A stretch of DNA of 64,000 bases from Candidatus Phycocordibacter aenigmaticus (GTDB taxonomy: Bacteria; Patescibacteriota; Minisyncoccia; Phycocordibacterales; Phycocordibacteraceae). The translations under genes and the position numbers were made by a program. Where the stretch lies: the NCBI GenBank assembly GCA_045401115.1, contig CP174359.1:547247-611246 (forward strand), given 5' to 3'. Positions 6,455 to 55,224 of this stretch are shown here, piece by piece (position 1 is the first letter of the stretch; each line of letters opens with the position of its first letter). Under the pieces are notes generated by a model. That model was not told the origin of the DNA. It ran no database searches and saw only the letters and a list, made by a program, of their open reading frames with translations.

Positions 6455-9138
6455 GCTGTTATCTTACCATTTTTACGAAACGCAACGACCTTAGCGAACT
6501 CAATAGTAATAATATTTGCAATTGCCACACCAATAAGAACTATTATATCGAATGGATTTGGCATAGTGAGTGAAAGCAATGAGCGCAACGGTTCAACAAC
6601 AAGGGAGGCAACAATGCCGAGTGTCGCCACAGCTAAGGCAAACAGGAGATAATGGTTGGTGAATGGATTAATTTCCCAAATTGGTCGATGAAGATTTTTC
6701 AACGATATACCAAAGAATATTGCATCAAGCGAAAGGACTACAAACATGATAGTGCGTACCTCTTCGATTGGAATACCGCGGTTGAGCAGCCACACAAACA
6801 AAGCAATACTAAACAACCCTGAAATAGTACCTGCGATAATAATCAATTTTTTGACTGCCGGAGTTAGTGCCGTTTGTGCGCGAACTTCGTGTGGGCTACG
6901 TTGCATGGCATTTTTTTCATGCGGTTCAAACGCATACCCAAATGTCAGTAAACCTTCTTCAAAGATATTGACCCACAGAATTTGCACCGGAAGCAACGGA
7001 AGGGGCAACCCCGTGATCAATGCCGCACTAATAAGAAATACTTCGTGAAAACTAGTACTAATAAGGTGTGTGATGGCTTTCTTAATATTATCGAGAATGC
7101 GTCGCCCTTCACGTATCGCAGCAACAATGATGCTAAAACTGTCATCTAATAAAATTAAGTCAGATGCTTCACGGGCAACTTCGGTGCCACTACCAACAGC
7201 AATACCGATTTGCGCGCTCTGAAGTGCCGGCGCGTCATTCACACCATCACCCGTCATTGCCACTACCTCGTCATGCGCTTGAAGTACACGTACGAGACGT
7301 TGTTTTTGTTTTGGTAACACCCGTGCAAATACTGGAATAGTGCGTAATGCAGTATAGAGCTCTTCATCGGTCATAGTGTCAATATCAGAGCCCATCACAT
7401 ACCTAGAGCCGACATCAGCAATACCTACCTGTTGAGCTACATTGAGTGCTGTTTCTGGTTTATCGCCCGTTACCATAACCACCCGCACACCGGCACCGTG
7501 AACCTCGGTAATCGCTGCGGGAACCTCTGCTCGTATCGGATCGGCAAAAGCGATAAAACCAATAAACACGGTATCTTGCAACAGCGCTTTTTCATTATCG
7601 CGATCAATCACCTCTCCTTTGTATGGAGTATATGCCACACCGACAATGCGCTTTCCTGCCGTAGCGAGCACCTGTAACTCCTCTCGCAGCGCTTCACGTC
7701 GCTCATTTGAGAGCGCCTCAGGACCCTCCGACCCCTGTATGCGACTCGCCCCCTCTAACACCACCTCTGGTGCGCCTGAAATATAAAGATGTGCCACTTC
7801 ATCTTCATCGGCATATAACGCCGCAGCAAACTGTCTATCGGAATTGAACTTCAGTGTATCAATTTTCTGTTGTCCCGGTGTAAGCATCTTTTCAGTGAGT
7901 CCATTTTTTCGGGCAGCCGTAAGTATTGCCCGCTCAAGCGGATCACCGCCATATACCTCGTTAGTGTCGTTAATATAGTACGACTCTGAAACATACATAG
8001 CGGCAGTAAGCAGCCTCTCTTGTGTTGAAGAAAGTTCTCCTGGGATATATACTCCCTTGTCTTCGTGCGTTATAAGACCCGCAACACTCATACTTGCCTG
8101 CGTCAGAGTACCCGTCTTATCGGTAATAATAATGGTAGTTGATCCAAGTGTTTCGGCAGCAAGTAAATTACGTACTAACCCTTTCTTCTTTAATATCTCC
8201 TCCATCCCCACTGCGAGAATAACAGTCACCGCAGCTGGAAGACCTTCGGGAACCAATGAGACGGCGAGCGCAATAGCGAGGATGATGATCTCTGAAAATG
8301 GCATACCACGAAGGAAGCCAAGTACGATAAGACCAGTGATTACAATAACCACCATAATACTCAAAAAATGCGCCAGACGACTTACACTCTTTTCAATAGG
8401 TGTTTCAGCTGCCTTGTAGTTGTTTAAGCTTTCAGCAATAGTGCCAATCTCCGCATCCTCTCCTGTTTTGATTACCACCCCTTGCGCTGATCCTGTTAAT
8501 ACAGGCGATCCGGAAAAGAGTATATTCGTTCGCTCATAGATCATTGCTTCATGAGAAAGGGTCCCGGATGTTTTATGTACTGAACTAGATTCTCCAGTTA
8601 AATGCGCCTCAGATACACTGAGATCGCGCTCACTAATAAGATATGCGTCAGCAGGTATGATTCCCCCAGCCTCAACAAAAAATATATCACCCGGTACCAA
8701 GTTCCGCGCTGAAACAACGGCTCGCTCCCCGTCACGTAATACGGTAACTTCATGTTCTTCTGAGGTAAGGAGTGCAAGGAATGAACGTTGTGCACGATAT
8801 TCCTGTACAAAGCCAATAATCACATTTACCAACAACGCCAACATAATCACTATCGCATCAACCTTTTCACCTAAATAGAGCGCACCAAGTCCGGCAAGAA
8901 TTAAAATCACCACCAAAGGACTTTTAAATTGCAGCAAAAAAGTTTTTATAGGAGAAGAACTTTGTTTCTCTTCGAGTGTGTTATAGCCGCATTCTTTGTG
9001 GCGTTTTTCTACTTCATCAAAAGAAAGGCCGGATGATTCTGATGTAGCAAGCTGTTCAAGAACCACTTCTTTAGAAAGCGTATGCCAAGAATCTTTTTTT
9101 TCAGAAAGGAAATCTTTCTTAGCGGTATTATTTTTCAT
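6451..9138 (-). CDS. cation-transporting P-type ATPase (P2-type, Ca2+/Mg2+-like)
   Basis: 895 aa; phosphorylation motif DKTGTLT; hinge MTGDGVNDAPAL; TGES actuator motif; 8-10 TM helices; 4-nt overlap with rmuC. Confidence 0.9.
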   Translation of the reverse strand: MKNNTAKKDFLSEKKDSWHTLSKEVVLEQLATSESSGLSFDEVEKRHKECGYNTLEEKQSSSPIKTFLLQFKSPLVVILILAGLGALYLGEKVDAIVIMLALLVNVIIGFVQEYRAQRSFLALLTSEEHEVTVLRDGERAVVSARNLVPGDIFFVEAGGIIPADAYLISERDLSVSEAHLTGESSSVHKTSGTLSHEAMIYERTNILFSGSPVLTGSAQGVVIKTGEDAEIGTIAESLNNYKAAETPIEKSVSRLAHFLSIMVVIVITGLIVLGFLRGMPFSEIIILAIALAVSLVPEGLPAAVTVILAVGMEEILKKKGLVRNLLAAETLGSTTIIITDKTGTLTQASMSVAGLITHEDKGVYIPGELSSTQERLLTAAMYVSESYYINDTNEVYGGDPLERAILTAARKNGLTEKMLTPGQQKIDTLKFNSDRQFAAALYADEDEVAHLYISGAPEVVLEGASRIQGSEGPEALSNERREALREELQVLATAGKRIVGVAYTPYKGEVIDRDNEKALLQDTVFIGFIAFADPIRAEVPAAITEVHGAGVRVVMVTGDKPETALNVAQQVGIADVGSRYVMGSDIDTMTDEELYTALRTIPVFARVLPKQKQRLVRVLQAHDEVVAMTGDGVNDAPALQSAQIGIAVGSGTEVAREASDLILLDDSFSIIVAAIREGRRILDNIKKAITHLISTSFHEVFLISAALITGLPLPLLPVQILWVNIFEEGLLTFGYAFEPHEKNAMQRSPHEVRAQTALTPAVKKLIIIAGTISGLFSIALFVWLLNRGIPIEEVRTIMFVVLSLDAIFFGISLKNLHRPIWEINPFTNHYLLFALAVATLGIVASLVVEPLRSLLSLTMPNPFDIIVLIGVAIANIITIEFAKVVAFRKNGKITA

Positions 9139-9250
9139 AGTAAATAGATATATCTAAAAATTCTTTTGATGGTTATTAATATGGTTATTTTTTACATCAC
9201 ACATGTTCACCCACTCTTACTATACCGCGCTCAATGCTATACTTATCCCT

Positions 9251-9700
9251 ATGATACAAAATGATGTGAAAGAAGCAGCTACCGCCGCTATGCGAGCGCG
9301 AGACCAGCAAACACTCACCACGCTTCGTGGCCTTTCGGCGGCATTTACTAATGAGTTGGTCACTCAACACAGGAAACCTGACGAAGCACTTTCAGACGAA
9401 GACGCTATTACTATTATTCGTCGCGAAGTAAAAAAACGCAAAGAAGCCGCTGAAGCGTTTGAAAATGCCGGTCGCACTGAGTCTGCAGAAAAAGAGCGTG
9501 CCGAACAAGCTATTCTTGAAACGTACCTCCCTGCTCAGATGAGCGAAGAAGATATTGCTGTTGTGGTAAAGAAAAAACAAGAAGAGCTTGGTATTACCGA
9601 TAAAAAAGATATGGGTCGTCTTATGGGAGCAATTATGCAAGAACTTAAAGGAAAAGCTGATGGCGATCTCGTTAAAAAGGTGGTAGAAAGTGTTCTATAG
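9251..9700 (+). CDS. yqeY: GatB/YqeY domain protein
   Basis: About 150 aa from the internal Met (MIQNDVKEAATAAMRARDQ...); YqeY-like helical protein with RREVKKRKEAAEAFENAGR...YLP segment; the ORF-track start at 9203 is probably too long. Confidence 0.7.
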   Translation: MIQNDVKEAATAAMRARDQQTLTTLRGLSAAFTNELVTQHRKPDEALSDEDAITIIRREVKKRKEAAEAFENAGRTESAEKERAEQAILETYLPAQMSEEDIAVVVKKKQEELGITDKKDMGRLMGAIMQELKGKADGDLVKKVVESVL

Positions 9701-9753
9701 TAACAAATACAGCATCTTGACAAGATATATATAAATGGTATATTACCACTTAT

Positions 9754-9954
9754 ATGGAAGGAAAAAATCTTGAATTTGATTTTCAAAATACAACTTTTCA
9801 GTCTCAACGACGCCGAATAAAACCCGGTATAGATACTGAACCACCAATGACAAGACAAGAAAATCCTGATGAATGTCCAAACTGTGGGTGTATTTGTCCT
9901 GGCTGTAACTGTAAACATTACTGCCCTAAATGTTTTTGCAATCACGAAAACTAA
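9754..9954 (+). CDS. small cysteine-rich protein (40-aa N-terminal region plus 26-aa core with 9 Cys: CPNCGCICPGCNCKHYCPKCFC)
   Basis: 66-aa ORF in its own intergenic unit; sigma70-like promoter upstream (TTGACA ... TATATT around 9716-9745); strong terminator immediately downstream; no homolog recognised. Confidence 0.45.
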   Translation: MEGKNLEFDFQNTTFQSQRRRIKPGIDTEPPMTRQENPDECPNCGCICPGCNCKHYCPKCFCNHEN

Positions 9955-9966
9955 TATCTCTAGTTA

Positions 9967-9998
9967 TAAAAAATGGCTCACCTTAGTGAGCCATTTTT
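9967..9998. terminator. bidirectional intrinsic terminator (AAAAAATGGCTCACC-TTAG-GTGAGCCATTTTTT)
   Basis: Perfect palindrome with A-run and T-run; lies between convergent genes. Confidence 0.75.
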
Positions 9999-10019
9999 TA
10001 TGTAGCTGATTTTTATTTG

Positions 10020-10526
10020 TTACGGAATTATCCGCTCATACACAAATTGTTCACCATCTTGGTTACCAATAGTAAACGTATTTGTCGTTACCTCAAATAC
10101 TGCAAATTCTCGTTTTCCGTTTTTATTGCCATCAAAACGCATGAATACAATTGTTGCTGCGCCATCTGGTGATTCTTCTGTGTACAGGTCCCATGCGCCA
10201 CGATCATTTCCTTGTTCAAAAGTACCGTCCGAATTCAAAGTAAGGTTTGAAGCGTCACCGTTGATATGTTCCCACGCAAAACCAGAGATATGAGCGCCCA
10301 TACGATCAAGATCAACCTCTGACTGCTGTCCATCAGCGTTTTCTGTTGCAGCCTGATCGTTGCGTTGAACATTTTGTTGTGGCGTATTATTTAAATTACC
10401 CGCGGTATTTCCTTTAAAAAAATCAATATCATTCTTACTTAGAGCCTGTCCACCAAACCAAAGTCCCACGCCAAGAAAAACGCTTAAAACGCCACCAACG
10501 ATATATGTTATATACTCTTTGTTCAT
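10020..10526 (-). CDS. hypothetical membrane-anchored or secreted protein
   Basis: 168 aa; N-terminal TM (YIVGGVLSVFLGVGLWFGG) then Asn/Gln/Asp-rich extracytoplasmic region; no recognised domain. Confidence 0.5.
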   Translation of the reverse strand: MNKEYITYIVGGVLSVFLGVGLWFGGQALSKNDIDFFKGNTAGNLNNTPQQNVQRNDQAATENADGQQSEVDLDRMGAHISGFAWEHINGDASNLTLNSDGTFEQGNDRGAWDLYTEESPDGAATIVFMRFDGNKNGKREFAVFEVTTNTFTIGNQDGEQFVYERIIP

Positions 10527-10660
10527 ATGTATATATTAGTATATCAATAAAAGAGATAATATGGGAGTATATCCACCGTCTTAAATAATACGGGGACGCT
10601 TCGCTATCTCACTGCTCGACGTATTCTCGTCTGCGCACATAGAACCCACGGTTCTATGTC

Positions 10661-10736
10661 GGCCTCGCTTAACTCCTCCACGGGAAAACAACATGTTTTC
10701 CCGACCCCTTTCCGGTTCGATTCTCCACACAAAGCA
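10661..10736 (+). repeat. tRNA-Glu-derived degenerate repeat (copy A; GGCCTCG ... CCGGTTCGATTCTCCACACAAAGCA)
   Basis: Shares start GGCCTCG and end CCGG(CCG)TTCGATTCYCCACRCAAAGCA with the copy at 11097-11194; GC-rich, no credible ORF. Confidence 0.4.
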
Positions 10737-44890: not shown

Positions 44891-44926
44891 CGCTATTTTA
44901 AAAATAAACAGCTCAATGGGTTGAGC
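44891..44926. terminator. palindromic terminator (AAATAAACAGCTCAA-TGGG-TTGAGCTGTTTATTTTT), preceded at 44864-44889 by a GGTCGGTCC-loop hairpin
   Basis: 11-bp stem with A/T runs; 3' of the gene 44961-45911. Confidence 0.6.
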
Positions 44927-44960
44927 TGTTTATTTTTGTCTTATATTTATGAAATTTCTC

Positions 44961-45930: not shown

Positions 45931-48732
45931 CTACCACTCAAAAATATCTACAATATCTTTAATTGCTTCGCGGATGCGATTAACCACAGACTTATGCTCC
46001 ATGAGTCGAGGGCGTTCTGGCAAGCGCTCGACAATGTCTTCACCACTTGGAAGTCGGTCTGTGTATAGATACTCACCAATTAAAACCTCAACATCTTCCA
46101 TTGAGATGTTTTCAGTTTCTGTGAGGTGTCGCAATGTTGTAGAGCGTTCACTTGCCCAAAATTCAGAAAATGCAGCTTCAACATCTTCAGAGCGTGATAC
46201 TTGAGGAAGATTTTCTTCAATAAACTTCCTTACTAAGTCTTTCTTCTTACGAAGGTTTACGTCACGATCGAATACTTTCAAAATATCTTCTGTCTTCTTA
46301 GCTCGCGCTGCATCAGAAGTAATGTTCTTTAGGCCAGCAATGAGTTGGATGATGTAGTCGAAGTTAACAAGATCTCGAACGGTTAGCTCAAGCTCAAAAT
46401 CAATTTGATCAAGAATTGATTCTTTTTCCTTATCTATTGTTTTACTTTCAGCATATATATCAAGGTACTTACTCTGATAGTCATAGAACTCTTGTTCTGT
46501 AATACCAAGGTCATCAAAAGAGAATTCGGCAAAAGTTTCTAGCGACGATTTGATACGAAGCAGATCACGAAATGACTGAACAAAGTCCGCTTTCTCTTGC
46601 TCGCCTTGCAGAGAATCAACGGAGTCTGGATTCGTTACTTTTTCTCGAAGCTCATCTAACTTTTCTTTAAATTCTTTCTTCTGCTCCTCATAAGGCTTTT
46701 TAAACACTACCTCCTTCGCATTCTCATCACCGTAAAGGGCCAAGGCCTTGTCGGTCGCTTCCTTAAGGTTTCGGAATGAAACAATATTGCCGTGCGGCTT
46801 ATCGGAGTTCAAAAGACGATTGGTTCGAGAATAGGCCTGAATGAGTCCGTGATAGCGCAAGTTCTTGTCTACATAGAGCGTATTGAGCCGTTTGCTATCA
46901 AACCCGGTCAGGAACATATTCACTACTAGAACTAGATCTACTTGTTTGTTTTTAATTCGCTTCTGGATATCTTTATAGTAATCATAAAACTTATCCGTAC
47001 TGTAGTTCGTGCTATAGATAGCGTTGTAGTCTTTAATACAATTCTCTAGAAAATCACGAGAATGCTGATTCACGCTAACGCCTTCCGTTTCCAAAGGATC
47101 ATTATCTAAGTCTGCATTCTCATCATCAGACTCATTGGCATGATAGGTGAAAATAGTAGCAATCTTCATATCCTCAGGGGCCCTTTCTTTAAATAGTGTG
47201 TAGTAGCGCTTGAGAACATCAATGCTGGTTACTGCAAATAGAGCGTTGAATTTTCCAGCCTTTGTTTTCTTTTTCCAGTCGTGGAGTACGTAGTCGGTGA
47301 TTTTTTCAAGACGATCCTGGCTTTCAAGCACTTCCTTCGTATCAATTCCCTCCACCATTGCGTCTGAAAAAATGTCTGCATCAAGTACGTCGGGATCTTT
47401 TTGCTTATATTTACCAACATATTCTACTGAGAACCCGAGTACGTTGTTATCACTAATAGCGTTGGTGATGATGTATTTATGTAAACAATCAGTAAAGACA
47501 TCTTTAGTTGTAACCTTGCCAATATGATTCTCCGCAAAAATAGGTGTGCCAGTAAAACCAAACAGTTGTGCTTTATTAAAGAAACTTTTAATACGTGTGT
47601 GTGTTTTCCCAAATTGACTTCTGTGGCACTCATCAAAAATAATCACTACCTTTTCATCCTTTAGATATTCAAATTGCTTCAAATATGGCCCTCTCCCAAT
47701 CGCAATATCAAGCTTTTGGATAGTAGTAACAATGAGCTTGCGATTTGGATCGGCTAACTGCTTCACTAGAGCACTAGTATTATTTGTGCCATCAACTGAG
47801 CCATCAGAAAATGAATTAAACTCTTCAGTGGTCTTAATGTCTAAGTCCTTACGGTCTACCACGAACATTACTTTCTTAATATCAGGATTTCGGGCAAGAA
47901 TCTGGCTAGTCTTGAATGCTGTCAAGGTCTTCCCCGCCCCGGTTGTGTGCCAGATGTAGCCATTCTTATTTGATTCATTTACCTGCTTCTCCAAGGCTTT
48001 CACTGCGTAATACTGATATGGCCGGAGCACCATTGGTATTTGTTCTGCCTCTGCTAATACTGTATGCTCCGCTATCATTTCTGATACCGCACACTTCTCT
48101 AGGAAAATATCAGTGAAATCTTCAAGCTTGGTGATTTTCTTATTATCGACATCAGTCCAATAAAAGGTCTGCTCGAATGTTTGCTTTGGATTATTAGAAA
48201 AGTACTTAGTATTTACGCCATTGGAGATGACAAAGATCTGTACGTATTCAAAAAGCGTGCCCGTAAATGAATGTTTGTGGTATCGCTGTATTTGATTAAA
48301 CGCTTCCTTCATTTCAATACCGCGACGCTTTAGTTCGATCTGAACTAGAGGTAGTCCGTTAATTAATAGCGTTACGTCATAACGATTCTCATACTTGCCG
48401 ACTTGTGTGATTTGCTGGGTTACCTGATACTCGTTTTTGCACCACTGGTCCATGTTGAAGAACTGAATCCAGATAGTGGTTTCATCGTCACGCTTTAGGG
48501 AGAAACGGTCACGCAGGGTCTTGGCTTTATGGAAGCGGTCACCTTTCATGAGATAATTCATGATGCGAGACCACTCATCATCTGAGAATGTGGTGTTGTT
48601 AAATTTCTCTAGTTGGGAACGGAGGTTAGCTTCAAAAGCAGCAGATTCTTCGACTACAACCGGCTCAAACCCCAAGCGCGTTAATCGCTCGATCAGTGAT
48701 TTTTCTAGTTGTGCTTCGGATTGATGGGTCAT
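45931..48732 (-). CDS. hsdR: Type I restriction enzyme R subunit
   Basis: 933 aa; N-terminal HsdR_N nuclease region; SF2 motor with Walker A HTTGAGKTLTAF and DEAH-box FDECHRS; C-terminal helical domain. Confidence 0.9.
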   Translation of the reverse strand: MTHQSEAQLEKSLIERLTRLGFEPVVVEESAAFEANLRSQLEKFNNTTFSDDEWSRIMNYLMKGDRFHKAKTLRDRFSLKRDDETTIWIQFFNMDQWCKNEYQVTQQITQVGKYENRYDVTLLINGLPLVQIELKRRGIEMKEAFNQIQRYHKHSFTGTLFEYVQIFVISNGVNTKYFSNNPKQTFEQTFYWTDVDNKKITKLEDFTDIFLEKCAVSEMIAEHTVLAEAEQIPMVLRPYQYYAVKALEKQVNESNKNGYIWHTTGAGKTLTAFKTSQILARNPDIKKVMFVVDRKDLDIKTTEEFNSFSDGSVDGTNNTSALVKQLADPNRKLIVTTIQKLDIAIGRGPYLKQFEYLKDEKVVIIFDECHRSQFGKTHTRIKSFFNKAQLFGFTGTPIFAENHIGKVTTKDVFTDCLHKYIITNAISDNNVLGFSVEYVGKYKQKDPDVLDADIFSDAMVEGIDTKEVLESQDRLEKITDYVLHDWKKKTKAGKFNALFAVTSIDVLKRYYTLFKERAPEDMKIATIFTYHANESDDENADLDNDPLETEGVSVNQHSRDFLENCIKDYNAIYSTNYSTDKFYDYYKDIQKRIKNKQVDLVLVVNMFLTGFDSKRLNTLYVDKNLRYHGLIQAYSRTNRLLNSDKPHGNIVSFRNLKEATDKALALYGDENAKEVVFKKPYEEQKKEFKEKLDELREKVTNPDSVDSLQGEQEKADFVQSFRDLLRIKSSLETFAEFSFDDLGITEQEFYDYQSKYLDIYAESKTIDKEKESILDQIDFELELTVRDLVNFDYIIQLIAGLKNITSDAARAKKTEDILKVFDRDVNLRKKKDLVRKFIEENLPQVSRSEDVEAAFSEFWASERSTTLRHLTETENISMEDVEVLIGEYLYTDRLPSGEDIVERLPERPRLMEHKSVVNRIREAIKDIVDIFEW

Positions 48733-50588
48733 GTTGTTGTTGAAAGGTTATCGTCAATCCACTTGAAAATAACTTCAAAGCTTTGTACTGCCTCATTAGA
48801 CAAGTTTTCTTTCTTAATTTCTTCTCGCTCTACCTTAGAAGCAAACTCTCTAGCAAACAATATTTTTCTCCTACCAATGATTGTAGAAGGTTTTCGTTTA
48901 TCATCAGTTTTAATCTTTTTATCAACCAGAGAAAAGTCCTTAACTGTAAACAAATTTTCAATTTCGCTTTTAGATATCAGCTTAATTTTCTTGTTTGTCT
49001 CATTATCATCACCATTAAAAATTCGCTCCTTTAAATCTTCTTTTGTCATTTTTGGATTCTCACCATTGTCCATAACAAGCAACCAATCTAAGCCATAGCC
49101 TATACAAAAAGATATAAGGTGATAAATATGGTTTCCTTTAATGCCAATACCTGGAACAAACTTGTAGTCAATTTCTTTATCAAGGATTTTTGCCATTGAT
49201 TTGAAATACCAAAAATCAGACAGACCTTCTAGTAATACATTCTTTCTAGAAAGAACAGAGAAGTCCTTAAGTGGCTCTAAGCCCATTGCTTCTGCAATAG
49301 GTTGCAATGCCTCTTGTTTGTAGGTCGTATCTAACTTGGTGGTAGTCAATCCTTCAACAATGGTTCCATTGTCCTTGGTATTTATAACTAGTCCAATATT
49401 ATAAAGCAATTCTGTGTTAATTAGCGAAGGAGAATGAGTTGAGTAAATTACCTGGTGGTTCTTTTTAATCAATTCGTCGAACACGTTCAGTATGTCTTTA
49501 TGTGCTTTAACATGGAGGTGCAATCCAGGTTCGTCATACAAAATAACTCGCTTTCGGCCGTGTTCCATTGATTTAAGCTCCAACCACGCAGATAAAAACC
49601 AAATCATTCCTTTGCTTCTTTTTCTCGGCTCTAGAAGCACATTATCTTTTGTTTCTATATAGAAAAATACAGTTGGAACGGCCTGACTGTTTACACTTTC
49701 ATTGTTTATTTGAAATTTTATATACAAATCACCCTCTGAGTATATTCTTTGTTTCCATGCTTTTTGGAATTTAGTAGACAATTTCGTTACATTAGTGGAT
49801 GTCACAGATGTCTGGTGACTGTTCGACAATTTAGATATCGAAACAAAATCCTTATCTAGCAACTCTTCGAGATTTTTAACGGCATTGTATCCTTCTGCTT
49901 CCGTATTTCTTGATTCAAGGTCTGAGATTTTTATTTTATCTGGCAACAAATCGCTGAAAGCGTTAAACAAAACAATTTCAGGAGAGATACCAAAAAATAC
50001 TTCTGCAACTTCTTTTTCCTTTCCTTCTAAATCTATCCAGGGAGTTTTGTTCTTAACCTCCTTTCCATCGGTGTTCGTTTCAACAACCTCCTTATTTTTG
50101 ATAGCACCTCGAACGATACCGAAAACAGAGTCCGTTAACGACATCTCTAAAGTATTTGATTCAAGATTGAATTGTTTTGTAATTGTGTATTCTTTTACTG
50201 ATTTTAGTTTACCTTTATCAAAAAAATCATCCTCATCGCCAATTGAAAAAGTTTTGCGAAATTTCTTAATTAGAGAATTAGCCAAATCATCAGAATCATC
50301 CACTAAGTAAGTACACGAGATTTCCTGTGTAAAATTTTCTGCCTGCTCTTCTTCAAAATTTAATGAATCCCTTTCAAATTCTTCACTTTCGTAGGCATTA
50401 AGTGCTTCTAGTATTGAACTTTTCCCTGATTCATTTTGCCCAGCCAATACAAACATACTCTCAGAAAAGATAATATCTCCTGAATCTTTTATGCTCTTAT
50501 AATTTTTAATTGAAACTTTTTTTATCATAGTATTTCTACACAAACATTTTTTGAAGCAGCCCCTTTTTCCAAGCTTCTGCTTTTTCAA
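48729..50588 (-). CDS. OLD-family / PARIS(AriAB-fusion)-like ATP-dependent nuclease: N-terminal ABC-type ATPase (AAA_15/21) plus C-terminal TOPRIM/DUF4435-like domain
   Basis: Walker A GQNESGKSS; Walker B and signature ILYDEPGLHLH; H-loop STHSP; C-terminal Toprim-like LLEGLSD...LLVMDNGE; the start may be the internal Met at 50528; the stop overlaps the hsdR start (ATGA). Confidence 0.7.
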   Translation of the reverse strand: MKKQKLGKRGCFKKCLCRNTMIKKVSIKNYKSIKDSGDIIFSESMFVLAGQNESGKSSILEALNAYESEEFERDSLNFEEEQAENFTQEISCTYLVDDSDDLANSLIKKFRKTFSIGDEDDFFDKGKLKSVKEYTITKQFNLESNTLEMSLTDSVFGIVRGAIKNKEVVETNTDGKEVKNKTPWIDLEGKEKEVAEVFFGISPEIVLFNAFSDLLPDKIKISDLESRNTEAEGYNAVKNLEELLDKDFVSISKLSNSHQTSVTSTNVTKLSTKFQKAWKQRIYSEGDLYIKFQINNESVNSQAVPTVFFYIETKDNVLLEPRKRSKGMIWFLSAWLELKSMEHGRKRVILYDEPGLHLHVKAHKDILNVFDELIKKNHQVIYSTHSPSLINTELLYNIGLVINTKDNGTIVEGLTTTKLDTTYKQEALQPIAEAMGLEPLKDFSVLSRKNVLLEGLSDFWYFKSMAKILDKEIDYKFVPGIGIKGNHIYHLISFCIGYGLDWLLVMDNGENPKMTKEDLKERIFNGDDNETNKKIKLISKSEIENLFTVKDFSLVDKKIKTDDKRKPSTIIGRRKILFAREFASKVEREEIKKENLSNEAVQSFEVIFKWIDDNLSTTT

Positions 50589-51735
50589 TTTGCTTGGACT
50601 TTGCAGTGATTAACTCATCAATATCCGATAGAAAGTTAGCAATTCTTTTCTGCTCGTCAACACTTGGCATTGCAATTTCGACCCTTACAAAATCATCAGG
50701 CTTTACTGCCATTCTTTCGTAAACAGTTCCTTCTTCAAACCGTCTTGCTTTGTTAATAAAACTTGAATGAGTTAAGTAATATCCAACAAAATCAATATCC
50801 TGTTCGGTAATTTCATATGTTATGTAAATAGGAGAGAATATTCCGTCACCTAGTCTGTTAATATCTATTACATTGAATTTTAAATTGGCTGGGTTGTAAC
50901 ATAAATCATTTAGTCTAGTGATTTTGTATTTTTTTGATTTATCATCTTTTACTAAGAAATCCCTATGGTAACGTTCCGACTTTGGAACCACACCTGCTGT
51001 AGTTAATGAGATATGAGGATACCCGTTTCCTTTGGTTGAATATTCTTTCCTCTCTTTGAGAAAGTGACCGACAGGCATTTTTTGCCACTCAGGGAAGTAT
51101 TTCCCGTCTTCATCCTTAAATCGCACTTCTTGCGAGAAGATTTTTTGCATTATTCCGCGCTTGTATTCTTCAAGTTTTTCTTTTTGGGTTTTGAATGATT
51201 TGATTAGTTTATCTACACTCTCTAAGAAATTAGCGATTTGTGCTTGCTCATCTACTCCTTTTGGAAAGTGAATTGGAGATGCTGATACAAAGTCCCATTC
51301 AGCTCTTGGCATTTTTGAGCCAGCACTTACATTTGCAAAATAGTTAAATCTAGAGCCTTGTATAAAATAAAACAGAAATGAAGGCTCTACTTTTTTTGTT
51401 TTAAAAACCCATATTTCAGTAGTACATACACCATCAGATTTTGCATGTACGAATTTTCTTAGATAGGGTCGTAATTTTCCATACAACACATCGCCCAATT
51501 GGTATACATTTTTAATACTCTTTAGTTCTTGGGTTGGGATATATTTAATAACCTCGCCTGTATCCTTTTCGATGCTTTCTAGCTCTATTGAGTGAGGATA
51601 TTTTTTTGATTTCTGGGGGTCAAATTTCTCTTTACCAAGTTTAACTACATCGCCAAACTCGTATATACTCCACTCGCCTAAAAATCCAGGGAACCGCAGT
51701 TCGGGTGTATTCTTTTTTGTAGTCGCTGTATTCAT
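50536..51735 (-). CDS. hsdS: Type I restriction-modification specificity subunit
   Basis: 399 aa; two target-recognition domains separated by conserved coiled-coil repeats (e.g. LLQKIFSQE / GLLQKMF). Confidence 0.85.
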   Translation of the reverse strand: MNTATTKKNTPELRFPGFLGEWSIYEFGDVVKLGKEKFDPQKSKKYPHSIELESIEKDTGEVIKYIPTQELKSIKNVYQLGDVLYGKLRPYLRKFVHAKSDGVCTTEIWVFKTKKVEPSFLFYFIQGSRFNYFANVSAGSKMPRAEWDFVSASPIHFPKGVDEQAQIANFLESVDKLIKSFKTQKEKLEEYKRGIMQKIFSQEVRFKDEDGKYFPEWQKMPVGHFLKERKEYSTKGNGYPHISLTTAGVVPKSERYHRDFLVKDDKSKKYKITRLNDLCYNPANLKFNVIDINRLGDGIFSPIYITYEITEQDIDFVGYYLTHSSFINKARRFEEGTVYERMAVKPDDFVRVEIAMPSVDEQKRIANFLSDIDELITAKSKQIEKAEAWKKGLLQKMFV

Positions 51736-53354: not shown

Positions 53355-53858
53355 CTACTCCCCTGTTTCGCGCTGTATGAGCGCGACTGTTTCTTCTAAA
53401 GTGGAATCTTCGCCGATTATGATTTCGCCGGGTACATCCAGATAATTCTTCGGTTGGTACCACGATTTCATTTCTTCTTCGCCGAATTCATCTGCTACGG
53501 ATTTTGTCTTATGTCTTCTGATTGTTTCCTCTAAGGGAACATCGATATAGAACACCCTTACAGGACAGTGAGCGCGTTCCATCAGGCGCATTAATACTTC
53601 TTTGTATTTAGGTTTTGAGAGAATGCCCTCAAGAATGACTGTGTAGCCTTTCTCTAGGCAGTAGGTAACCGTTTGTTCTAATAGACCAATAATATCCGTA
53701 TTTTCCTGTGAATCTTTCTCCATTAAGATACCGCGGCGCAGGGCGTCCTGGCCGACAACCGCTACTTTTCCGTTGAGTTTTTCCCGTAGGCATTCTGCTA
53801 CGGCACTTTTCCCGGAGCCTGAGTTCCCGCGTATGATGATGAGTTTTTGGTTATTCAT
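53355..53858 (-). CDS. P-loop kinase-like NTPase (AAA_33/zeta-toxin/polynucleotide-kinase-like fold)
   Basis: 167 aa; Walker A GNSGSGKS at the N-terminus; Walker B-like VILEG; no further identifiable specificity. Confidence 0.55.
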   Translation of the reverse strand: MNNQKLIIIRGNSGSGKSAVAECLREKLNGKVAVVGQDALRRGILMEKDSQENTDIIGLLEQTVTYCLEKGYTVILEGILSKPKYKEVLMRLMERAHCPVRVFYIDVPLEETIRRHKTKSVADEFGEEEMKSWYQPKNYLDVPGEIIIGEDSTLEETVALIQRETGE

Positions 53859-53875
53859 AGTTAAAGACCTATCTT

Positions 53876-54403
53876 TTACTCTTTATCATCCTTTAAATCC
53901 AGTGCACTGCGAAACACTACCTTTTTAAAATCTTTGTCTTCAACGTGCGCTTCAGCCTCGTGCGGCGGAACCCACGCTATTTTTCTGACATGGCCGGCTG
54001 GGTCTTCGGTAAAATCTCCCTCGGGAACCACGTTACACCTATACACCAAACGATAGTGGCGGATATCTCCTGAAGGGCTCATGACCTTTTGATAGGCAAT
54101 CGGCGCGTAGTCTACTACGGCGCAGTTTGTTTCTTCCCGCACTTCCCTATGAAGCGTCTCCTCAATAGATTCCCCCGGCTCGCGCGTGCCGCCGGGGATG
54201 CTCCATATATTCCACTTAGTGAGATGTACTAGCACTATTTGACCGTTATGCAGGCACAAGGCGTGGGCTTTTATTTTTAACTCGTCCGGTATGTCGTCAA
54301 AATTGTTAGCAGCGACATGGTGAATATCGCACCGCTCTCCTCTATATGTGATTACTCCTTTGAAGACTTCTGGTTTCTCGTTGGGAATATCTGAGTTTTT
54401 CAT
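53876..54403 (-). CDS. NUDIX hydrolase
   Basis: Nudix box GGTREPGESIEETLHREVREETN; start taken at the internal Met (MKNSDIP...), giving a 6-nt gap to the upstream gene. Confidence 0.75.
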   Translation of the reverse strand: MKNSDIPNEKPEVFKGVITYRGERCDIHHVAANNFDDIPDELKIKAHALCLHNGQIVLVHLTKWNIWSIPGGTREPGESIEETLHREVREETNCAVVDYAPIAYQKVMSPSGDIRHYRLVYRCNVVPEGDFTEDPAGHVRKIAWVPPHEAEAHVEDKDFKKVVFRSALDLKDDKE

Positions 54404-54408
54404 GAACT

Positions 54409-55224
54409 TTATTTCCAGTACCCTAAGACGCACGCTTCTACTCCAACCGGTTTACCCTTCTTTGCAAACAAAATGACGGAATCCCTATCAACAATATATT
54501 TTTTAGTATTATCTTGTGCAAAACAAGTGCCTTTTTTCAGCTCTTCAAAATCATCAAAATTTTTAGTGAGCTCAAAGTCTTCAACATCTTTCATTACAAC
54601 ACGATAGACAAATAGGTGTTTTTGTTTTCTTTCTGTTCTCTCAGTTGAGACAGAAATAGCTCCGTTGTATTTGAGAAATTTATAGAGTGAATCTTTTGCA
54701 AGCCCAGTATACGATTCACTGTCCTCTGTATATCCACACTCCACACACACTCCCGGCTTGTTTTGGTGCAACATGTATCCTTCTGTTGCTCCTGGTTCAA
54801 TTTCATCCCAACCTGTTGAGATTATTTCAAAATCTAACTCTTTAACAAAATCTGAATCGAGGCCTCCGTGGATTACAAAAGGTGTCGTATTTTTTGTATT
54901 ACTCGCGTGAATATCTAAAAGAGTGTCTGACTTATCAAGAATAGGTAAAAGCTCCCTAGCAATACAATCTTCATAGGTTTGACCATTGTTACCTTCAATA
55001 AAACACCTGTTAAGGTTTTTTTCTATGAATCTAGTATTTTGTTTTATTGCTTTAGTATTAGCAAAAACAAAGTAGACGGTCCCATTTTTTATATCAACCT
55101 CTTCTAGTACTTCATTTACAGCATCTATCCCCACCCTTTCATTACCATGCACACCACAAAAAACAGCGAGTGTTTTCCCTGGATTCTTTCCTTGAATCAT
55201 TATAATTTTAGGACCATTTTCCAT
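54409..55224 (-). CDS. succinylglutamate desuccinylase/aspartoacylase (AstE/AspA) family zinc hydrolase
   Basis: 271 aa; N-terminal zinc-site motif CGVHGNER and downstream His typical of the AstE_AspA / M14-like deacylase family. Confidence 0.7.
   Translation of the reverse strand: MENGPKIIMIQGKNPGKTLAVFCGVHGNERVGIDAVNEVLEEVDIKNGTVYFVFANTKAIKQNTRFIEKNLNRCFIEGNNGQTYEDCIARELLPILDKSDTLLDIHASNTKNTTPFVIHGGLDSDFVKELDFEIISTGWDEIEPGATEGYMLHQNKPGVCVECGYTEDSESYTGLAKDSLYKFLKYNGAISVSTERTERKQKHLFVYRVVMKDVEDFELTKNFDDFEELKKGTCFAQDNTKKYIVDRDSVILFAKKGKPVGVEACVLGYWK

Follow-up and report, generated by a model that had tools for sequence, protein, structure and literature searches.

The window, by which is meant the whole stretch of 64,000 nucleotides analysed (contig CP174359.1, positions 547,247 to 611,246), comes from Candidatus Phycocordibacter aenigmaticus, a member of the Patescibacteriota, and carries on its minus strand a Type I restriction-modification (RM) operon with an additional gene inside it. 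The genes are found in the order hsdM, hsdS, X, hsdR, followed by a gene encoding a 316-residue candidate nuclease of the PDC-S02 family. X, the subject of this work, encodes an intact nuclease of the OLD family and belongs to a clade that resides nearly obligatorily in RM operons. A first reading made from the sequence only had proposed the order hsdM-hsdS-X-hsdR, and this is borne out by the flanking genes as identified with hidden Markov models (HMMs). HsdM, HsdS, and HsdR of the host Type I system are all present and intact, and since HsdR, which also matches NCBIfam TIGR00348 (6e-143), contains an EcoR124_C domain, the host system is Type IC-like.

The OLD-family gene between hsdS and hsdR

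The sequence-only reading had placed the open reading frame (ORF) of X at 48729-50588. Its end stands, while the start has to be moved: the ORF finder begins at a TTG codon at 50588, inside hsdS, and the extra 60 nucleotides overlap that gene. Comparison with the N-termini of 24 homologues puts the start at the ATG codon at position 50528, as does a separate gene call made on a second assembly, and the protein thus has 599 residues. It is 100% identical to XKT74350.1, annotated as 'ATP-dependent nuclease'. The close packing of the genes proposed earlier is also found. Seven nucleotides separate the TAG stop codon of hsdS (50538-50536) from the ATG of X, and the stop codon of X shares an ATGA overlap with the start codon of hsdR (48732-48729).

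The product of X is an OLD-family nuclease in which an ABC ATPase and a TOPRIM domain are fused in the classic architecture; it is intact and not of the PARIS type. In Pfam it matches AAA_15 (8e-26), AAA_21 (2.5e-14), and OLD-like_TOPRIM (23.9 bits against a gathering score of 23.2), so that the single-chain ATPase-TOPRIM assignment made earlier holds. When the C-terminal 181 residues are searched in isolation the OLD-like_TOPRIM score increases to 26.3 bits, and this is the sole Pfam family found up to E = 10. The top PADLOC models are AriA (5.6e-27), Old (5.5e-25), and GajA (5e-19). The AriA match covers residues 1-370, as the Pfam AAA_15 match does and over about equal length, and the Old model scores only 86 bits, split over two partial stretches. 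Against PADLOC the C-terminal half alone gives only models of the OLD/GajA type, namely GajA models, and one marginal RmrT match. The best relative in the PDB by sequence is the OLD protein of Thermus scotoductus (TsOLD, 6P74, E 1e-4). An AlphaFold model of X has a mean confidence (pLDDT) of 84, and its leading Foldseek matches are TsOLD (1.8e-15), GajA, and the OLD protein of Retron-Eco8.

The sequence-only reading had also labelled the protein PARIS- or DUF4435-like, and this part fails. Neither the full protein nor the isolated C-terminal half matches DUF4435 or AriB models at E up to 10, the fused AriAB model covers only about 45 residues of the ATPase (residues 326-371), and PARIS structures are absent among the leading structural matches, which are headed by TsOLD. 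Kinship with RloB/AbiLii, DUF4276 (MAD4), or HEC-04 is likewise rejected, as no such model matches the nuclease half. MAD3 and AbiLi matches are confined to the ATPase, and HEC-04 is missing both from the best 25 of the 70 PADLOC matches that the full protein gives and from those of the C-terminal half.

The motifs quoted in the earlier reading are all present when the gene is retranslated at exact coordinates (Table 1). An alignment of 25 homologues sharing 47-88% identity shows that the ABC residues K36 (Walker A), Q68 (Q-loop), S305 and G307 (signature), D332 and E333 (Walker B), and H365 (H-loop) are invariant. The same applies to E434, D438, E524, and K555 on the TOPRIM side, while D487 is nearly invariant. 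The lowest conservation anywhere in X is found in an insert in the ATPase comprising residues 76-182. Judged by position, E434, D438, D487, E524, and K555 would be the counterparts of the metal-A and metal-B ligands and the lysine of BpOLD (PMC6755086), with D438, E524, and K555 standing for the additional metal-B ligands E404 and E508 and the catalytic K562. The TOPRIM site deviates from the canonical one in that the second aspartate of the DxD motif has been replaced by a glycine, G489. The DxD motif is retained in many distant relatives (25-43% identity), and a group embedded in Type III systems displays D-D-G. Within the subclade of the window G489 is itself invariant, which speaks for an active-site variant under selection and against decay. 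In BpOLD the second aspartate contacts metal A via water only, single mutants are still active, and a single metal is sufficient for nicking (PMC6755086). X is thus probably an active nuclease, predicted to prefer nicking over processive degradation because its metal-A site is without the second DxD aspartate.

X is under strong purifying selection. Compared with a homologue of 88% identity that occupies the same operon context, it has a ratio of non-synonymous to synonymous substitution rates (dN/dS) of 0.057, with 0.048 for the ATPase and 0.077 for the TOPRIM domain with the C-terminus. Full-length homologues number in the hundreds, and at E <= 1e-30 the family comprises 325 representative clusters. 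The ORF is intact, and the dN/dS value together with the invariant catalytic residues rules out a pseudogene or a chance ORF.

Residence in restriction-modification operons and exchange between them

The genomic context of relatives of X was scanned using one genome per species, giving 77 loci (labelled L0nn). Neighbouring ORFs were clustered, cluster representatives were annotated with Pfam, and RM genes were counted with HMMs made from those clusters. An RM gene is found within three genes of the OLD gene in at least 33 of the 77 loci, and in at least 23 of the 52 that have three or more genes on each side. For relatives of at least 40% identity the number is 18 of 21 genome loci, and an individual look at four more homologues from metagenomes or genomes places all of them inside Type I operons. 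The clade to which X belongs thus displays a near-obligate residence in RM operons, and these are of Types I, III, and IIG. Bacteria with genomes of full size harbour it as well, among them Flavobacterium and Sulfurimonas. The copies are full-length or truncated by the contig end in nearly all 77 loci, and fragmented relatives are few (L016 and L072). Plasmid and phage collections contain only distant relatives (at most 30% identity), with no useful annotated context.

The Type I neighbours are HsdM, HsdS, and HsdR of several families, including EcoR124-type and EcoEI-type. The order hsdS-OLD-hsdR of the window is found again in L007, L015, L049, L059, L060, and L067/68, where the OLD proteins are down to 24-27% identical to X. 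Gaps to the RM neighbours are mostly -8 to +18 nucleotides, with recurrent four-nucleotide overlaps; the spacing between the OLD gene and hsdR is -8 to +8 nucleotides in L007, L049, L059, L060, and L067/68, and -4 in L082. The Type IIG neighbours are Eco57I- or MmeI-like (L003, L005, L009, L025, and L042).

In the Type III loci L035, L036, and L039 the arrangement is Mod-OLD-Res, that is, a slot between the modification and the restriction gene as in the Type I operons. The hosts are a member of Omnitrophota, one of Paceibacterota, and a gammaproteobacterial metagenome-assembled genome, and the OLD proteins are 28-30% identical to X. The OLD gene, located at about 9001-10730 (5397-7154 in L035), overlaps the gene of the Mod methylase by four nucleotides, and that of the helicase-endonuclease Res is 1-4 nucleotides away.

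Other genes are embedded in these operons as well. In the four operons looked up individually, the additional cargo includes Fic, a YhcG nuclease, DUF8370/8371, and DUF2779. Type I operons with the OLD cassette often contain such extra genes, as in L078 (8820-11060), L079 (5896-6911 and 8748-9854), and L004 (10835-12376), where a Schlafen protein with AlbA_2 and HATPase_c_4 domains is found besides Fic, DUF8370/DUF8371, and a DUF1016/YhcG nuclease. The junctions between hsd genes seem to be general insertion hotspots.

Co-evolution of the OLD protein with its host system was assessed by Spearman correlation of pairwise identities for 13 Type I-embedded loci (78 pairs). HsdR and HsdM identities correlate well (rho 0.81), while the OLD protein follows neither HsdR (0.004) nor HsdM (0.05). 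In L010, L030, and L060 the OLD proteins are 85-88% identical, while their HsdR proteins share no more than 29-32% identity and the order of the genes is not the same. The homology between these three loci at the DNA level (76-81%) is bounded within a few nucleotides of the ends of the OLD ORF (Table 1). Conversely, L059 encodes an RM system 52-59% identical to that of the window, but the OLD protein at the same junction is only 30% identical to X. It follows from these comparisons that unrelated RM operons have repeatedly exchanged the OLD gene as a cassette of one gene. The base composition of the window is consistent with a swapped-in cassette comprising hsdS and X, as the GC fraction is 0.354 for hsdS and 0.337 for X, compared to 0.414 for hsdM, 0.403 for hsdR, and 0.417 for the entire window.

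The remainder of the operon and its surroundings

The features of the locus are summarized in Table 1. The PDC-S02 gene starts 19 nucleotides 3' of hsdR and is probably the final gene of the operon. Its product is composed of an N-terminal DUF8426 domain and a C-terminal NucS_C-like PD-(D/E)XK nuclease domain, and the PDC-S02 model covers it almost end to end. The family is among the candidates of Payne et al. (bioRxiv 10.1101/2024.01.29.577857). None of the 77 genome loci has a PDC-S02 homologue beside the OLD gene. The hairpin found after this gene is likely a bidirectional terminator at the end of the operon; it was the only noteworthy site in a promoter and terminator scan in which sites otherwise were no commoner than in shuffled sequence.

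Directly upstream of hsdM (53355-55224, minus strand) there are three partly overlapping genes on the same strand. They encode an AAA_33/zeta-toxin-like kinase of the PRK06762 family (167 residues), a NUDIX hydrolase (185 residues), and an AstE/AspA-like zinc hydrolase (271 residues). The genes flanking the operon on both sides are ordinary (the NUDIX protein, the AstE/AspA-like protein, and an alpha/beta hydrolase), and the operon is therefore a compact islet and not a part of a large defence island.

Table 1. Features of the X locus. Positions refer to the window unless another locus is named.
Feature	Position	Strand	Evidence or remark
hsdM, Type I methyltransferase subunit, 525 aa	51743..53320	-	Pfam N6_Mtase 1e-108 and HsdM_N; NCBIfam TIGR00497 1e-143
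hsdS, specificity subunit, 399 aa, two target-recognition domains	50536..51735	-	Pfam Methylase_S x2; PADLOC Specificity_I 2e-73
X, OLD-family ATPase-TOPRIM nuclease, 599 aa plus stop	48729..50528	-	AAA_15, AAA_21, OLD-like_TOPRIM (scores in text)
ABC ATPase region, residues 1-395, with variable insert (residues 76-182)	49344..50528	-	
Walker A, GQNESGKS	50418..50441	-	Translation; invariant in 25 homologues
Walker B/D-loop, ILYDEPGLHLH	49512..49544	-	Translation; D332 and E333 invariant
STHSP motif	49428..49442	-	Translation
TOPRIM core and C-terminal helical region, residues 427-599	48732..49250	-	
TOPRIM glutamate motif, LLEGLSD (E434, D438)	49215..49235	-	E434, G435, S437, D438 invariant; aligns with EGxxD of TsOLD
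Degenerate DxD motif, MDNGE, residues 486-490 (D487-N-G489)	49059..49073	-	Second Asp replaced by invariant Gly
ATGA overlap, stop codon TGA of X and start codon ATG of hsdR	48729..48732	-	Translation at exact coordinates
hsdR, Type IC-like restriction subunit, 933 aa	45931..48732	-	HSDR_N, SWI2_SNF2, T1R_D3-like, EcoR124_C 8e-57; PADLOC REase_I 4e-301
PDC-S02 candidate defence protein, 316 aa	44961..45911	-	PADLOC PDC-S02 4e-148; Pfam NucS_C 2e-7
Perfect palindromic hairpin, 18-bp stem, between PDC-S02 gene and next same-strand gene	44899..44938	.	Pattern match only
OLD ORFs compared at the DNA level	L010 8993-10813; L030 4326-6146; L060 7336-9143		

Relation to known systems and possible functions

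OLD proteins have been divided according to genomic context into lone genes (Class 1), Gabija (Class 2), retrons (Class 3), PARIS (Class 4), and archaeal Cran1 (Class 5); an RM-embedded class is not described in this literature (PMC10568477, PMC12392090, PMC12796447). X resembles the Class 1 proteins P2 Old, TsOLD (6P74), and VcOLD in being a single chain with an ABC ATPase containing an insert, a TOPRIM domain, and a helical region. However, the identity in structural alignments is only about 13-14%, and the second DxD aspartate is a glycine in X. Class 1 is furthermore defined by lone genes located away from defence genes (PMC10568477), while the X clade is embedded in RM operons. GajA of the Gabija system is encoded next to the UvrD/PcrA/Rep-like GajB, while the neighbours of X are HsdS and HsdR, a superfamily 2 protein, and no GajB was found. 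The retron OLD proteins are encoded next to a reverse transcriptase and a non-coding RNA; no reverse-transcriptase domain is found in the genes of the X operon, in which non-coding RNA was not searched for.

PARIS, made up of AriA and AriB or of a fused AriAB, shares with X an ABC ATPase, a TOPRIM domain, the existence of fused forms, and a conceptual link to anti-restriction. AriB is a DUF4435 TOPRIM protein, of which X displays no signal. HEC-04, MAD3/MAD4 of the MADS system, and the RloA/RloB-AbiL proteins also combine an ABC ATPase with a TOPRIM domain, fused or as pairs, in methylase-based operons. HEC-04 is found in Hma systems and is shorter than X, judged by the mutated residues K62, E319, and D375/D377. 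It is a validated autonomous defence protein that needs both its Walker A motif and its TOPRIM acidic residues (bioRxiv 10.1101/2024.01.29.577857). In their 'guilt by embedding' study Payne et al. (2024) found ABC ATPases paired with or fused to TOPRIM domains among the most common embedded genes, and modules of this kind embedded in Hma, BREX, and RM loci provide defence independently, HEC-04 being an example (bioRxiv 10.1101/2024.01.29.577857). PARIS-like modules within BREX loci have been discussed (PMC12839542), and TgvAB is embedded in a Type I operon of Vibrio (PMC11411939). The embedding of modules in RM loci is thus already published, and the general phenomenon is not new. What appears to be new is the near-obligate embedding of one clade over three RM types, the exchange of the gene exactly at its ORF boundaries and without co-evolution, and the conserved DxG variant.

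We favour, at slightly better than an even chance, the reading that X acts autonomously as a defence effector of the OLD family and is housed, as a cassette of one gene, in a Type IC RM operon. By analogy with TsOLD, VcOLD, and GajA, the ATPase heads would dimerise and gate the TOPRIM site, which would then nick or cleave DNA. VcOLD is known as a stand-alone antiphage nickase (PMC12392090). DNA would be a somewhat likelier substrate than tRNA, because the C-terminal half resembles the corresponding domains of GajA, BpOLD, and TsOLD, and not AriB. Embedding would secure both co-expression and co-transfer with restriction, and a phage that evades or inhibits restriction would then be faced with a second nuclease acting by a different mechanism. 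The best candidate for a sensor surface is the variable insert.

Several points weigh against this reading. The clade is almost never found outside RM operons, where its usual place is next to the restriction gene, with the modification or specificity gene on the other side; this exceeds what would be expected from hitch-hiking and hints at a dependence on RM. The 78 pairs used to assess co-evolution are non-independent and come from only 13 loci, and the RM counts are lower bounds, since the HMMs used to annotate distant loci were derived from these same loci. Catalysis could be lowered or changed by the absence of the second DxD aspartate, and the substrate, trigger, and oligomeric state of the clade members rest on analogy. 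The near-exclusive residence in RM operons suggests some link to restriction, or else a strong selection for co-expression and co-transfer.

The sequence-only reading had suggested a second-line defence that is guarded by RM and may fire on inhibition of restriction, which stands as a hypothesis. In the most far-reaching form of this idea X would be a portable 'restriction guardian' for ATP-dependent RM systems in general, be they of Type I, III, or IIG, which plugs in between the modification or specificity and the restriction genes and is switched on by a generic sign that restriction has failed or is inhibited. The cue might for instance be DNA-mimic anti-restriction proteins or unprocessed RM intermediates. 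We put this forward tentatively, as a possibility that falls well short of probable. A generic link to restriction, for instance by sensing of anti-restriction proteins, may be compatible with the exchange data.

Such sensing is also the core of a rather unlikely explanation, in which X is an autonomous, PARIS-like sensor triggered by RM inhibition. The ATPase or its insert would bind anti-restriction proteins like Ocr, ArdA, or Stp, whether or not these are DNA mimics, thereby freeing the TOPRIM nuclease and causing abortive infection. A trigger that is generic across RM types would account for the linkage to Types I, III, and IIG in the absence of co-evolution, and the hypervariability of the insert is what an arms-race surface would display. 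There are precedents in that PARIS senses Ocr and PrrC answers Stp (PMC10802454, PMC12707154), and the same benefit has been proposed for embedded ABC-ATPase systems by Payne et al. (bioRxiv 10.1101/2024.01.29.577857). However, the affinity of X to AriA and AriB is limited to the shared ABC and TOPRIM folds both in sequence and in structure, and no binding site for a DNA mimic is identifiable in the X sequence.

The slot occupied by X is that of prrC in the prr locus of Escherichia coli, as the sequence-only reading had pointed out, and hsdS-X-hsdR is indeed found here in a Type IC-like locus (PMC2610378, PMC12707154). PrrC, linked to the Type Ic enzyme EcoprrI, likewise has an N-terminal ABC ATPase followed by a C-terminal nuclease (PMC2610378, PMC12707154), and it is invariably Type Ic-linked and physically bound to its enzyme (PMC2610378). 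One could therefore envisage that the HsdMSR complex binds and silences X and that inactivation of the complex unleashes it, and the tight translational coupling of X to hsdR fits such an arrangement. In PrrC, however, the C-terminus is an anticodon-nuclease domain with an Arg-Glu-His triad, while that of X is an OLD-type TOPRIM domain. Moreover, the X clade is promiscuous, being found in several unrelated Type I families and in Types III and IIG, and nearly identical OLD copies are found in unrelated operons. The lack of co-variation with HsdR and HsdM together with the hops across RM types argues against silencing by one cognate enzyme, and we regard a PrrC-like latent guardian as improbable.

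Cleavage by all three linked RM types is rare or takes place at a distance, and reduced genomes, such as the patescibacterial genome of 721 kb considered here, may often be without end-processing nucleases. X might then be an accessory exonuclease that degrades ends or nicks left by these sparse translocating or ATP-dependent cutters, and thus finishes the restricted DNA. P2 Old, TsOLD, and BpOLD do display 5'-3' exonuclease activity in vitro (PMC10568477). But the clade is present in full-size genomes too, the degenerate metal-A site makes nicking likelier than processive degradation, and an unregulated exonuclease would have no need for an intact and conserved ABC ATPase with a variable insert. 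This explanation appears as doubtful as that of a latent guardian. That X is a non-defence or decaying passenger, be it an addiction or selfish module or a relic with a DxG-crippled TOPRIM site, is most improbable: the subclade of the window lacks the second DxD aspartate and some relatives are broken (L016 and L072), but the low dN/dS, also in the nuclease half, the conserved catalytic residues, the invariance of G489, and the full-length or contig-truncated state of nearly all copies speak against it.

The five-gene operon is a clear example of three stacked nuclease-based defences in a reduced genome of the Patescibacteria. The X clade provides a compact system for asking what activates single-protein OLD nucleases. 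It also bears on whether RM 'guardians' other than PrrC, and without one cognate enzyme, exist. If the portable guardian were true, the OLD family would have its first equivalent of PrrC without a tie to one enzyme, and the clade would constitute a distinct context class of OLD proteins.

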